Shown in pieces: positions 8,593 to 62,446 of a stretch of 64,000 nt of DNA. The stretch's first letter is position 1; each line of letters starts with the position of its first letter. The DNA is from Eledone cirrhosa (lineage: Eukaryota). Position numbers and translations under genes: made by a program. Location: the NCBI GenBank assembly GCA_964016885.1, contig OZ024742.1:87978001-88042000 (forward strand), given 5' to 3'. The notes beneath the pieces were generated by a model, which saw nothing but the letters and a program-made list of their open reading frames with translations, did no database searches and was not told the DNA's origin.

Positions 8593-8908
8593 TTTCGCGG
8601 AATTAAAATACTAAAGTAGATTTACCAGTCCGTTCTTTTAATGAATACTCCTGTTGTTGTTTTAATAAATACATGACGCCGTTCCTTCACCAACCACTGA
8701 ATACCTCAGCTAGGAAGAATGATTTGCATAACTGTGAGAGTTCTAATTAATTTGTTGCATCAACATTTACCAACCCAAACCATCAGTCGTTCCAAATGGT
8801 AAACAACCAAACATAAATTATATATATATATATATATATATATATATATATATATATATATATATATATATATATAAGATCAAAAGATGGTTAAAGGAGT
8901 TCCATGTA

Positions 8909-8975
8909 TTTTATTATGCGCATTTCAAAAACAAACATCATCATGCAATAATATTTGTGTTTTCATCAGATAAAA
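8909..8975 (-). ncRNA. Minimal hammerhead ribozyme (mirror copy)
   Basis: Reverse complement of 9098-9164. Confidence 0.8.
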
Positions 8976-9097
8976 CAGGAGAACATGATATGAAAGCTAA
9001 AAAACACTTGTGGATAGTGCAGTTTTAAATCAACATATGTTGATTTAAAACTGCACTATCCACAAGTGTTTTTTAGCCTTCATATCATGTTCTCCTG

Positions 9098-9164
9098 TTT
9101 TATCTGATGAAAACACAAATATTATTGCATGATGATGTTTGTTTTTGAAATGCGCATAATAAAA
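9098..9164 (+). ncRNA. Minimal type I hammerhead ribozyme
   Basis: ttttat-CTGATGA-stem II (acaaatattatt/gatgatgtttgt, with G-U pairs)-GAAA-tgcgca-TA-ataaaa. Stem III is palindromic (atgcgcat). Confidence 0.85.
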
Positions 9165-9327
9165 TACATGGAACTCCTTTAACCATCTTTTGATCTTATA
9201 TATTATGTATACTCCAGTCCTACAAACTGTAGAGTGCTTCTTATCCGATATGTGCATTGCTTTATTGTACTACAATAAAACTCACCTCCTACATATATAT
9301 ATATATATATATATATATATATATATA

Positions 9328-9445
9328 TTTCGTTTCTGAATTTGTTTAGCAAGATTCTTTATCTGAAATCGTGTGTTGAAACCGATATTGTTATACTTTG
9401 GGAGGGTCATGTTGGCAACATGACCCTCCCAAAGTATAACAATAT
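9328..9445. mobile_element. Miniature fold-back of the Neptune-like PLE terminus
   Basis: 9328-9415 matches 54842-54928. It is followed by the inverted caacatgaccctcccaaagtataacaatat, matching 61320-61348. Set in (TA)n. Confidence 0.85.
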
Positions 9446-9456
9446 ATATATATATA

Positions 9457-10212
9457 TTAGAAAGTGATTTTTTTTTTACAAAATGAAAAATAACCGAAGT
9501 ATCCTACAGGAGTGAAAGTATAAAAAAAATAAGATGAAATCGAAAATGCAACTGGAGTTTTATTTATAAAAAAATATATATATTTATATTGTTCCTTTAC
9601 CGGTTTCGCATTTCTTCTGCTTTTCAAAAGTAGAGTTGTGATGGAGAGTCTGTGGTTTATTCTCACATATGCTTGTTCTTTGAATGTTACTTGTTTTATA
9701 TGGAAAAAAAGTGGCTCGAAAAATTTGCTTGTCATAAAATTCTCTAAAAAGGCTACAGAATAGATTTCCAAATAAGGGCGCGAAATTTAAGGAAAACTTG
9801 TTCACGTGACAGCCATGATTTCATTTATAACCAATCAAATTACGTTTATTAAAAAAAAGTCTTCGTGAGCCCCTTTTTTTAAGTAAAAAGAAATTCAAAC
9901 TCTCATATATGAAAAAACAACCTGAGCCCACCCCATTTGTTTGAAGAACATTGTAACGCGAACTGGCGCGAAATGTATTATAATTATTGACAAACCAATC
10001 AAATTACTTCTCTGGCGTTTCAAGCCACTTTTTTCCATATAAAACAAGTAACATTCAAAGACCAACCAGATGTGAGAAAAACTACAAACCCTCCATCTCA
10101 ACTCTACTTTTGAAAAGTAGAAGAACTGCGTAACAGGTAAAGGAACCAAATAAATATATATATATTTTTTTAAATAACACTCCAGTTGCATCTTGATTTC
10201 ATCTTTTTTTCT
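9457..10212. mobile_element. Non-autonomous element with long imperfect terminal inverted repeats
   Basis: About 9525-9720 is the reverse complement of about 10020-10210. TA-flanked. A partial copy lies at 51000-51135. Confidence 0.65.
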
Positions 10213-10382
10213 ATATATATATATATATATAAAAGAAATAGGATTTCGCTTCAAGCATAACTTTATACAATATGTGTAAATATTTCGTATCTCCAAAGAA
10301 ATACAGTTTTAGGAAGCCGTAGCTATACAAACACCGGGGGGCTAACGCCCTCTTGTGATGTCCAGCAGAAGCAAGAGGGACA

Positions 10383-58972: not shown

Positions 58973-59092
58973 GTTGCCAATAAGAAACACACGCACCAGT
59001 TGCTTTCACTTCAATTTATTATAATACATTTATAAATTTATAAATTTCTGGTTTGTTGGTTGGTTCCACAGCCAGATAGTTGTTTATATATT

Positions 59093-59135
59093 GTCATATT
59101 TATTTCGTCACACACTCTGTGACCTCTTCAGTGAC
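59093..59135 (-). ncRNA. Hammerhead ribozyme in upstream pLTR
   Basis: gtca-CTGAAGA-g gtcaca gagtg tgtgac-GAAA-taaa-TA-tgac. Confidence 0.82.
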
Positions 59136-59166
59136 TGGGGATTTTTTTCTTTGTTTTTGTGCCTCT

Positions 59167-60960
59167 CAACAATGAGCCAGTGAAAAGAAACAGGAGTAAT
59201 TATGAGAGACATAGAAACAACCATGGGGCTGTTGGTGGAAATAGAAATAGAAACAACACAACTAACAATAACAATAGCACTAGTTCACATAAAGCAGCAG
59301 CCTGGAACTCTACTTTTTATAATCCCTCCGATAAATCGTTCGAGCTATGACGAGTCCACGCCACGTCTTTACCATTTAAGAAACGCAGCCAATTGCCGTC
59401 GCAGGTCAATGAACAAACTAACACAAGAGAGGTAAGACCACAGTAATAATTACATAGACACATATGACCTTAGCAACCTGTGCCCTACAAGACCAGCAAG
59501 AGGCAGACCACCTACAATTACCTCAATGTCCAAGAAACCCCACACAGATAGATGGAATGGGTGAACGAGAGCCATACGGACACCCGAAAACCACGATGAA
59601 CAGAAGAAAATGATTGCCCATGCGGTAGGGGCCAGCATAAAACTAACCCTTAAGGAACATATGTTCAAATTTATTGGAAAAATATATGCCCAAGAGGAAG
59701 GAGCAGCCATTGGTGTTAGCATTGCAGGCGACATAGCTAACTTATTCATGGTATGTTGGGACAGTAGACTTAAACTTAAACTTAAAGAACAATTAGAAGA
59801 CCCCTTAACCCTGATAATGTACTCCCGCTACGTTGATGATATAAACATCGTAGTTAAGACACCCCCACGAGAGAACAGTCAGGAACTAGAGAGAAACACA
59901 ATGGAAAGCATCCAGCAAGTAGCTAACTCCATCCACCAGAGTATTAGAGTTACTATAGACTACCCAAGTAAACACCCCAACCATCGATTACCTGTACTAG
60001 ACACAGAGCTCTGGTTAGATACCATTAATAACAAAAAACAAATCCTCCATTCCCATTATGCCAAACCCATGACTTCCATACATCTGATCCACCGAAACTC
60101 GGCCGTTTCGGACCATACCAAAATCAACATACTGATTGCGGATTTGGTACGGGTGATGAGAAACGTGTCCCGCATGTGCAACCCCGAAGAACTAGAGAGA
60201 CACATACAACAATTCATCCACCGTATGCAGTTCTCTGGCTACAATCAGAGAGATAAAATCAGAGTGTATAGAGGAGCCAGAATCAAATGGGAAAAAATTG
60301 TAAATAATGACATACATGGGACCTGTCCCTTGTACAGGAGAAAATTTTGGAATAGAATAGAAAGAACTAGGAACAAGGCTAATAGAATAAACTCATGGTA
60401 TGATAGCAATATATACCAGAGTGTAATGTTCATCGATACAACCCCTAGAAATGAATTATCTTTCAAATTTAGAAGGGCCCTAGATAAACATAAACTCAAT
60501 ATTAAGATAGTAATAAGACCAGGTACTTCCGTAAAAATACTTATTAGCAAGACATACCCTTTTCAAAGACGCTCATGTATAGATAAGAAATGTATAACCT
60601 GTAAAATAAGCCGCCATATTAACTGTAAAACTAGAAATGTAGTGTATAGCATAAGATGTACTGAAGGACAATGTAGAGACAAAAAATATAGTGTACATAG
60701 GTGAGACAACTCGTAGTGTAGGGGAACGGATAAATGAACACTGGCGAGACCTTCAAGATAGTAAAGAATCATCTGTACTCTACCAACATTTTAAAATAGA
60801 ACACAAGGGTAAATTAGAGAACATAGAAATAAAAATAGAATCTACACACAAAAAAGACGCAATGTTTAGACAAATCACAGAGGCAATAAACATAAAAGAA
60901 TTACAACCAAAATTAAATAGAAAATATGAGTGGAACAGCAACATCACAACTTACCATTAA
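59167..60960 (+). pseudogene. Second, inverted partial copy of the PLE ORF
   Basis: ORFs 59610-60704 and 60691-60960 closely match the minus copy. An internal deletion at about 59420-59440 removes the N-terminal RT. Confidence 0.92.
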
Positions 60961-61160
60961 GGACAAAATCAAAACACACACACACATAGAAAAACAACCA
61001 ACCAGTAACATGTAAATAAACAAATAAATAAATGAACATAAACACACACAGACACCCGGATGTGGCGCATGCGCAGACTGAGCACACAACAGACACACAG
61101 AAACAAAATGGCGTAGGACAGAGCAAAGGAGAGGCACAAAAACAAAGAAAAGAATCCCCA

Positions 61161-61203
61161 GTCACTGAAGAGGTCACAGAGTGTGTGACGAAAGAACTAT
61201 GAA
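61161..61203 (+). ncRNA. Hammerhead ribozyme in inverted pLTR
   Basis: gtca-CTGAAGA-g gtcaca gagtg tgtgac-GAAA-gaac-TA-tgaa. Confidence 0.8.
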
Positions 61204-62059
61204 ATATATAAACAACTATCTGGCTGTGGAACCAACCAACCAACCAGAAATTTATAAATTTATAAATTTATTATAATAAATTGAAGTGAAAGCAACTGGT
61301 GCGTGTGTTTCTTATTGGCAACATGACACTCACAAAGTATAACAATATATATATATATATATATATATATATATATATATATATATATATATATATATAT
61401 ATATATACAAATAAAGATTCATCGAGAATCGCATTTCGGCGGGCAGGAGGAAAGGCGAAACGAAACGCAAAAATTAGAAATGACACTGGTAAATTGCTCA
61501 ATAGATAAAAACCAGAGCTAAACGATGTGTTAAGAAGCCATACAAAACTGAAAAGGTGGTCAAGAAAGCATGAACCTGCTAAGCCAAAAAAACAAATCAA
61601 GATGAACAGGTCAAAACAAAATAAATGATAAAAAATAAATATATATTTATGATTGTATTTATAGTATATTTGGTAATATACCGTATGTTTAATTAAAACC
61701 ATTTTAAAGATCTTGCGCTATCATTTTTGAAAGTATTGACTATGACACTTACTTCTTTTTTTCGGCAAAAGAAGGGAGAGAAGATGACAGAGTATGATTC
61801 AAAATGCTTGCGATCTTCGCCTTGGCCGAAAATCATAGAAGCTGGATTCTTATAGGATTTCGGTATTAATCAGGAGCTGATTTTACCGAGCGATTGCCGG
61901 TCCAGCTAAAATTAGGTATTATATTTGGTGCTATGAAACAGCGATGTATACATGAATGTATGTATAGTATATTTGGCAATATACCTTATGTTTAATTAAA
62001 CACGTTGAAGACCTTGCGATATTATTTTTAGTATATATATATATATAGAGAGAGAGAGA

Positions 62060-62446
62060 TAAATATACACGGGTGTGTATGATTGTGTATAGAAGATGAT
62101 ATTAATAAAAGGAATTCCAACTTTGTCTGATTTACTCGTTTTATTTACAATCCTTTAACATATATAATGGTATTAGAATGAAATAGTATGGTAGAATATT
62201 AAATGTTAAGTGTTAATTGAACAAGTACTTTCATGCTTTCGCAATCTTCAGGTTCATAATGTGTGGTGACAGTCAAGTTTGCAATTTTCAACTGTTGAAA
62301 ATGTTCAGCTAAAGCATGAACGTACTTGTTCAATTAACACTTAACATTCAATATTCTACCATACTATTTCATTCTAATACCATTATATATTTTAAAGGAT
62401 TGTAAATAAAACGAGTAAATCAGACAAAGTTGGAATTCCTTTTATT
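62060..62446. mobile_element. Hammerhead-bearing pLTR fold-back in (TA)n
   Basis: 62104-62239 is the reverse complement of 62311-62446, with a spacer of about 70 nt. Confidence 0.8.
62218..62256 (-). ncRNA. Minimal hammerhead ribozyme
   Basis: tgaac-CTGAAGA-t tgc gaaa gca t-GAAA-gtac-TT-gttca. Palindromic stem III agtact. Confidence 0.8.

Follow-up and report, generated by a model that had tools for sequence, protein, structure and literature searches.

Head-to-head Penelope-like insertions with one long and one short 3' end in the genome of Eledone cirrhosa

The window analysed here, a 64,000-nucleotide stretch of the Eledone cirrhosa genome (assembly GCA_964016885.1, contig OZ024742.1, positions 87,978,001 to 88,042,000 of the forward strand), carries a series of insertions in which two copies of one repeat family lie in inverted orientation with their RNA 3' ends facing outward. 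The initial annotation, made from the letters of the DNA, had described eleven such intervals as a non-autonomous system derived from Penelope-like elements (PLEs), and had proposed that both ends of a break in (TA)n prime reverse transcription from the 3' ends of PLE RNA and that the two cDNAs are joined head-to-head. The insertions are real and PLE-made, and their layout is already known; new are mainly a quantitative pairing rule, by which one arm has a long and the other a short 3' end, junction centres of the kind that a mismatch would leave, and the same signature on retrozyme-like units.

Inverted pairs in the window and their families

Self-BLAST and family mapping across the window confirmed an inverted pair with (TA)n flanks in all 11 reported intervals, with arm-to-arm identities of 82–99.5%, and recovered a twelfth pair, family J (9458–10215), which has ~200-nt arms, a ~61-nt tail on the left, TA on both sides and a polarity set by the tail only. 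The intervals had been ascribed to unrelated families, and several families are indeed involved, but they number nine rather than eleven: the pairs at 9328 and 54841 both belong to family A and those at 21083 and 22621 to family F, the others being B (8877), C (10232), D (17530), E (19790), G (26205), H (49490) and I (62060).

Families A, B, D and G are PLEs with reverse transcriptase (RT) and/or GIY-YIG endonuclease (EN) coding sequence, interrupted in every window copy. Family A is represented by a near full-length EN+ PLE on the minus strand (54841..59167), which runs from a 5' pseudo-long terminal repeat (pseudo-LTR; 59167–58887) through an interrupted RT and GIY-YIG open reading frame (ORF) to a 3' pseudo-LTR and has the long end, with a 56-nt tail. 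The element is a partial tandem, in that its 5' pseudo-LTR is 96% identical to the 3' end and the tail translates as the start of the ORF. Hammerheads lie at 59131..59097 and 55082..55048. Its partner is an inverted, 5'-truncated plus-strand arm with the short end (59167..61348; arm-to-arm identity 93% for 54841–61348), in which an internal template jump separates segments 59167–59418 and 59442–61348 and a hammerhead near 61165–61199 was read by eye. The RT match of family A to RVT_1 is weak (E 6e-4, below the cutoff). The EN translation has a CX4CxxC linker and the conserved R, H and E, and the best of 25 long homologues is an Octopus protein (65% identity); the linker offers a lead toward a Neptune- or Nematis-like clade. 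The mini pair of the same family (9328..9445; long-end arm minus 9330–9418, short-end arm plus 9412–9445, 7-nt overlap) ends at the same two points as the 54841 element.

The family B pair (8877..9293; short-end arm minus 8877–9039, long-end arm plus 9034–9291, tail ~80–94 nt) is the 3' end of a coding EN+ PLE, whose RT and EN ORFs lie upstream in other copies (L280, L277); hammerheads are found at −8969..8915 and +9104..9158, and the arms meet in a 6-nt CATATG overlap at the strong-stop site. Families G and D retain endonuclease remnants only. The G pair (26205..29322; short-end arm minus 26205–26728, long-end arm plus 26741–29322, ~135-nt tail) holds a thumb and GIY-YIG remnant on the plus strand at ~26950–27670, and the D pair, an old coding PLE (17530..19203; short-end arm minus 17532–18754, long-end arm plus 18755–19203, ~181-nt tail), holds a GIY-YIG remnant on the minus strand at 18533–18730 and no intact hammerhead. 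A type I minimal hammerhead with full core and stems is present in A, B and G, and D has no intact one. The PLE families show an inverted copy truncated at its 5' end, a tail on one side only, an AT-rich target and a target duplication. Elsewhere in the window, further PLE remnants (34087–34965, minus; 52273–52945, plus; 15297–15497, minus; 62881–62926, minus) comprise two fragments of the thumb/GIY-YIG region, an end that resembles family A's but has diverged, and a solitary hammerhead motif, and a short second family with family A's terminal motif lies in TA runs at 25915–26204, 29552–29694 and 50716–50770.

The description of the insertions as ORF-less fails for these four families and holds for C, E, H and I, in which the longest ORF with a start methionine is 11–57 aa; F has just a 115-aa ORF. 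Families C, E and F consist of tandem units 323, ~522 and ~472 nt long without RT or EN similarity and resemble, from their sequence, non-LTR retrozymes. C and F have a type I hammerhead in each unit, and E has the core without an adjacent stem I. The C pair (10232..10705) consists of a long-end minus arm and a short-end plus arm separated by an 18-nt AT-rich junction insert, with a degenerate hammerhead at +10537..10568. In the E pair (19790..20930) a short-end minus arm (19790–20086) meets a long-end plus arm of 1.6 units through 2-nt microhomology, and the tail is ~118 nt. The hammerhead core of E, at 20085–20300, has a long stem II and could partly form a type III-like pairing, and many short arms of this family terminate in the hairpin of that region. 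The first F pair (21083..22130; minus arm ~1.4 units, plus arm ~1 unit) is a diverged copy with hammerheads at −21322..21292 and +21809..21839; the second (22621..23490; short-end arm minus 22621–23028, long-end arm plus 23034–23487) has 99.5% arm identity and a hammerhead at +23144..23174. On contig C3, a ~30-kb head-to-tail array of family F (G000:C3:12291129-12320918, L131-L150), which has a higher-order pattern and TA-rich inserts that vary, is a candidate source locus or satellite.

Families H and I are short ORF-less units, and none of their fetched loci continues into an ORF of a coding parent. The H pair (49492..49676) joins a 61-nt short arm to a 138-nt long arm (tail ~77 nt) at the centre AC[T]GT, and the I pair (62060..62446; long-end arm minus 62060–62295, short-end arm plus 62308–62446) has a hammerhead at 62251..62223 and a ~38-nt tail. 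A single H arm lies at 30532–30641, and an H tail stands alone between TA runs at 54590–54662, both palindrome arms being absent; hairpin deletion or an aborted event is possible there.

The left-minus/right-plus polarity that had been noted holds wherever a hammerhead, an ORF or family identity fixes it independently. A custom hammerhead scan assigns it at 8877, 21083, 22621, 54841, 26205 and 62060, and at 10232 it follows from a hammerhead in the right arm together with the family C consensus. ORFs fix it at 54841 and 26205, as does the GIY-YIG remnant at 17530, and 9328 takes its polarity from 97% identity to the 54841 family. At 19790 the hammerhead evidence is a CUGACGA-stem-GAAA core without canonical stem I, and at 49490, which has neither hammerhead nor ORF, polarity is inferred from the tail. 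As a control for chance, a stricter scan gave 21 matches in 400 kb of evenly spaced genome tiles and none in shuffles. Among the best 150 of 177 Rfam matches in the window no hammerhead family appears and none reaches the gathering score; these matches are microRNA-like chance matches to hairpins and TA repeats. The palindromes are unlikely to be assembly artefacts, because the arms differ, the ends are fixed and the junctions vary from locus to locus.

Pairing of long and short 3' ends across the genome

First-look searches gave between at least 50 (B) and at least 3211 (H) candidate copies per family, all of these counts being lower bounds. After exclusion of six duplicate views and 14 loci of the single F array, 217 loci of eight families were parsed (A 28, B 28, C 30, E 28, F 16, G 29, H 29 and I 29); the parse left aside family D and the sets that full-length queries gave for H and I, and it counts the B, C, E and F copies of the window itself. 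A head-to-head junction was found in 138 of the 217 loci (140 junctions). Each family parsed has two fixed 3' ends, one short and one long, and 114 of the 115 junctions with both ends classed join a long to a short end (p about 6e-33 against a null of equal use at 50:50). With a tail-free query for family A, 21/21 junctions were long+short. Measured tails span about 32–181 nt, a wider range than the 40–95 nt first given for the longer tail. TA runs flank 90 of the 114 pairs on both sides and 110 on at least one, in agreement with the (TA)n flanks described for the window. The short-end arm extends further 5' in 38 pairs and the long-end arm in 42, the two lying within 10 nt of each other in 34; in the 38, neither arm contains the other, as the short-end arm reaches further 5' and the other alone has the tail.

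A further sample of 40 evenly spaced 10-kb tiles (400 kb) was taken from contigs C1 and C2. These contained 16 head-to-head junctions, one of them doubled by an inverted duplication, and no credible tail-to-tail pair, as had been claimed for the window. A tail-to-tail call at L371 was rejected as a 70–72% low-complexity match, and two calls in L290 proved to be internal rearrangements; among the parsed loci, tail-to-tail neighbours occur solely across TA tracts (L030, L329). A family-blind polarity scan of the tiles was too insensitive, with no hammerhead call in 59 of 62 pairs, two outward pairs and one mixed. The tile at L389:51-5407 holds a 2.7-kb inverted duplication (93% identity) centred on a family H palindrome. 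Pair density in the tiles is about 1 per 27 kb, the window being about five times richer, which would correspond to roughly 100,000 pairs in the whole 3.0-Gb genome if C1 and C2 are typical.

Priming of the two arms and joining at the junction

The junctions vary and show 1–5 nt of microhomology. Of 74 long+short junctions from families A, C, E, F and I, microhomology is seen in 52, an insert in 19 and a blunt join in 3; at least 2 nt of microhomology is present at 43 of the 55 insert-free junctions. At three loci a target duplication can be read, of 12 bp at L010, 10 bp at L062 and 14 bp at L083. We consider twin target-primed reverse transcription, in which each strand uses one start site and the cDNA ends join through microhomology, the probable origin of the pairs (probability about 0.65), a model that joins the counts given here with the two start sites and two-strand extension observed in vitro for PAc Poseidon (Frangieh et al. 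2024, PMC11167929). Each target strand of a staggered cut would prime one cDNA, one beginning at the long and the other at the short start site, both internal to the PLE, and the two cDNA 3' ends would anneal head to head via microhomology before repair of the junction by the host. One start site may belong to each protomer of a PLE protein dimer, and a single shared RNA may serve in most events. Templates of C, E and F would be circular or multimeric, cDNAs of B, H and I would stop at the transcription start, and the ORF-less relatives likely borrow the PLE enzyme. The earlier proposal that break ends prime two cDNAs joined head-to-head is retained in this model; priming from RNA 3' ends is not, as two fixed ends fit internal RT starts.

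Arms within an insertion diverge by 3.6%, compared with 5.2% between insertions (n=101, p 2e-10), and lineage variants are common to both arms at 105 of 171 sites, compared with 14% between insertions; gene conversion between the two arms at a later time may have contributed to this sharing. Such sharing, strict long+short pairing and microhomology are also predicted if one cDNA self-primes into a hairpin duplex, the endonuclease trims the open end in a staggered manner to give a short and a long end, and the unfolded product integrates. Self-priming is proposed in PMC3846280 and endonuclease resolution of an intermediate appears as the source of the tail in PMC8557442, and some family I copies (L212/L349, L346) look like a short fold-back plus a short second arm. 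However, the arm ends lie within 3 nt of each other in 24 of the 114 pairs and so leave no room for a fold-back loop; these pairs would need loops of 0–3 nt primed by 2–3 bp. Moreover, 66 of the 171 lineage sites differ between arms, with three or more discordant in L003, L048 and L303, untrimmed snap-back cannot yield the 38 pairs with the longer short-end arm, and RT in vitro begins at both tail ends from nicked target DNA (PMC11167929). We regard an origin by self-priming as unlikely.

The discordant arms of a few pairs would also be accounted for by two uncoupled insertions or ribonucleoproteins at the same (TA)n tract or break, subsequently end-joined. TA tracts do draw repeated insertions, as the tail-to-tail neighbours across TA show (L030, L329), and in A, C and E the lengths of the two arms show no correlation. 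Uncoupled events do not, however, predict 114/115 long+short junctions or variant sharing of 61% versus 14%, and both arms are of the same family in the parsed pairs, mixed-family pairs not having been searched for. This origin appears quite improbable.

Arms pile up at a single 5' position in families B (17/55 segments), I (28/49) and H (28/50). Longer family I copies have a TATA box 31 nt upstream of the pile-up base, which for this reason is likely, as judged from the sequence, to be the transcription start; copies of this family at L356, L360 and L361 extend upstream of the strong stop by as much as ~280 nt, and no ORF was found there. Where both arms reach the hot spot, its centre reads AC[A/T]GT, with 9 A and 13 T in H and 11 A and 5 T in I. 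Such A-or-T centres would be expected from a T-T mismatch between annealed cDNA ends, and fold-back would require a 1-nt loop there. An extra G before the family I stop, considered as a trace of the cap, is readable as two arms meeting with no added base, and the idea was rejected.

The same hot spots bear on whether the short palindromes (H, I and B-type) are DNA elements like MITEs (miniature inverted-repeat transposable elements), or palindromic units moving whole. Full-length H and I queries return apparently fixed palindromes, many with an identical centre, and four family I loci with an A centre have a common extended 5' sequence, which suggests some palindrome-derived source copies. Shared fixed junctions had been named as the sign of true MITEs, and two families do have hot spots; yet tail-only searches (29 H and 29 I loci) give many different junctions together with single arms. 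The tail, 38–77 nt in H and I, is not part of the inverted repeat and stands at just one end, A and T centres occur with the same subfamily marks, and other copies of family B run on into an RT/EN ORF. We consider movement of whole palindromes very improbable.

Twin priming itself meets several observations that weigh against it. The 217 loci are best matches and not random draws, six of the eight family queries included the tail and thereby fixed the anchor arm as long, and 79 of the loci have no head-to-head junction within the DNA examined. Of the 140 junctions, 26 fell outside the long+short class (18 long+other, 2 short+other, 2 other+other, 2 locus edges, 1 long+long and 1 misparse), 24 of them with an end disrupted by a further insertion, a deletion or the locus edge; the misparse, L084, was scored short+short and is a long+short insertion. 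The exceptions are L309, long+long, and L270, short+short across a 490-nt insert. Sharing of lineage variants reaches only 61%, so one RNA is not universal. In PMC11167929, the start site is no different between top and bottom strand, and no pairing of start sites within one event is shown. For the present families the model is drawn from sequence, and its in vitro part comes from another element. The 490-nt stretch between the two short-ended family A arms (L270:6051-6541) resembles the start of an LTR retrotransposon, with a TG-start repeat, a primer-site-like motif and a coding start, and is possibly a template switch.

The ribozyme is not required at the ends, since H is without one, D is without an intact one, and in six of seven families the hammerhead cut shows no excess of arm 5' ends: 0/46 in A, 0/40 in B, 0/40 in C, 0/10 in F, 0/20 in G, 1/42 in E (approximate site) and 5/38 in I, where the short palindrome also lies. 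The cut as a general arm 5' end was thus rejected, the one enrichment, in I, being weak. Many arms in C, E and F run beyond a single repeat unit, and units inside one F insertion differ by 0.7%, compared with 2.1% between insertions; both points fit circular or multimeric templates, or recent tandem duplication. In family C (L061-L090), the stop falls at about one full unit in 7 of 28 long arms (post hoc p 0.006), which may point to a circular template, and stops at one full turn were not seen in the long arms of E or F.

A wider joint reading is offered tentatively, as we think it doubtful in its entirety. Paired priming would be obligatory, with an RT-endonuclease dimer giving the long site to one strand and the short site to its partner, and a palindrome would result from each event that runs to completion; circles of retrozymes, and short RNAs bounded by a promoter, would hijack the PLE route; and the ~100,000 hairpins would be a main source of the long double-stranded RNA (dsRNA) behind the very high RNA hyper-editing of octopods.

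Besides the pairs, the window contains a ~200-bp repeat resembling a short interspersed element, found in both orientations (1271–1717, 6434–6651, 7591–7787, 16722–16792, 26067–26166, 32762–32950, 43328–43531), which interrupts one copy of the short family with family A's terminal motif. Remnants of long interspersed elements with RT similarity lie at 40507–43240 (minus; RVT_1 E 7e-18 for 40507–41181, zf-RVT weak for 41864–43240) and 45810–48021 (plus). Old inverted and direct repeats of 63–79% identity near TA/TC runs at 13490–14895 are possibly another decayed pair.

Relation to known elements

The PLE origin in the initial annotation stands, while a separate non-autonomous system does not, as the layout is the known form of PLE insertions and four of the nine families are coding PLEs or remnants of them. 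An inverted 5'-truncated copy, a one-sided tail and a (TA)n bias are described for PLEs in PMC8557442, PMC3846280, PMC2377424 and PMC8969392, and minimal hammerheads in PMC4209133; head-to-head is called the most frequent PLE arrangement in PMC3846280, with self-priming on an antisense template proposed, and PMC8557442 treats the way in which PLEs form their tandem and inverted ends as an unsolved question. The literature found contains neither the one-long-one-short rule nor head-to-head retrozyme insertions, although PLE papers of 2004–2006 may hold such a model. The rule and the A/T mismatch centres amount to a sharp prediction for the in vitro system of PMC11167929, and the PLE signature, borne as well by hammerhead repeats without ORFs, provides structural evidence for the movement of animal retrozymes by PLE enzymes. 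At the density found in the tiles, such palindromes could be misannotated as MITEs; they might also feed dsRNA pathways, and PMC5625713 reports that a lizard Penelope is heavily edited and that octopus is rich in near-perfect dsRNA.

Known EN+ PLEs (Arkhipova 2013, Craig 2021, Schostak 2008) share with the present families the pseudo-LTR partial tandem, the inverted truncated copy placed head-to-head, the tail at one end, target duplications of ~10 bp, the (TA)n preference and the minimal hammerheads. They differ in that long+short pairing is counted here (114/115) over eight families, that tails are 32–181 instead of 30–40 nt, and that the junction anatomy argues against self-priming of central palindromes. 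The in vitro work on PAc Poseidon comes close: two internal RT starts bound the tail, the PLE protein, a predicted dimer, cuts and extends both strands at AT-rich targets, and hammerhead cleavage is dispensable. In the main text of that paper, however, the two sites are not tied to two arms and no two-armed model is given, and the CX4CxxC linker of family A is absent from Penelope/Poseidon.

Retrozymes have been proposed as PLE parasites (Cervera and de la Pena 2020, PMC7229834; Li et al. 2026, bioRxiv 10.64898/2026.07.22.740005). Animal non-LTR retrozymes, like the units described here, are ORF-less and tandem, have a type I hammerhead (as in C and F) and range from monomers to long arrays. 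The published case for their link to PLEs rests on shared ribozymes, co-occurrence and phylogeny, whereas here the copies themselves bear the PLE insertion signature; in the preprint neither 'tail' nor 'TPRT' was found, and 'inverted' was found in a reference only. E and F units exceed the 150–450-bp range of retrozymes, and E is without a canonical hammerhead.

In L1 twin priming (bioRxiv 10.1101/2024.08.27.596794), both nicks likewise prime cDNA and the ends join by microcomplementarity. The second primer there starts at a random internal site and the arms have no common 3' end, whereas here both arms begin at fixed sites 32–181 nt apart and overlap, so as to form a palindrome in most paired insertions. 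With MITEs, as defined in PMC8969392, the shorter insertions share small size, lack of ORFs, high copy number, self-complementarity and TA flanks; they differ from them in that the repeat is not terminal at the tail end, the junctions vary, and several families run into RT/EN coding sequence.

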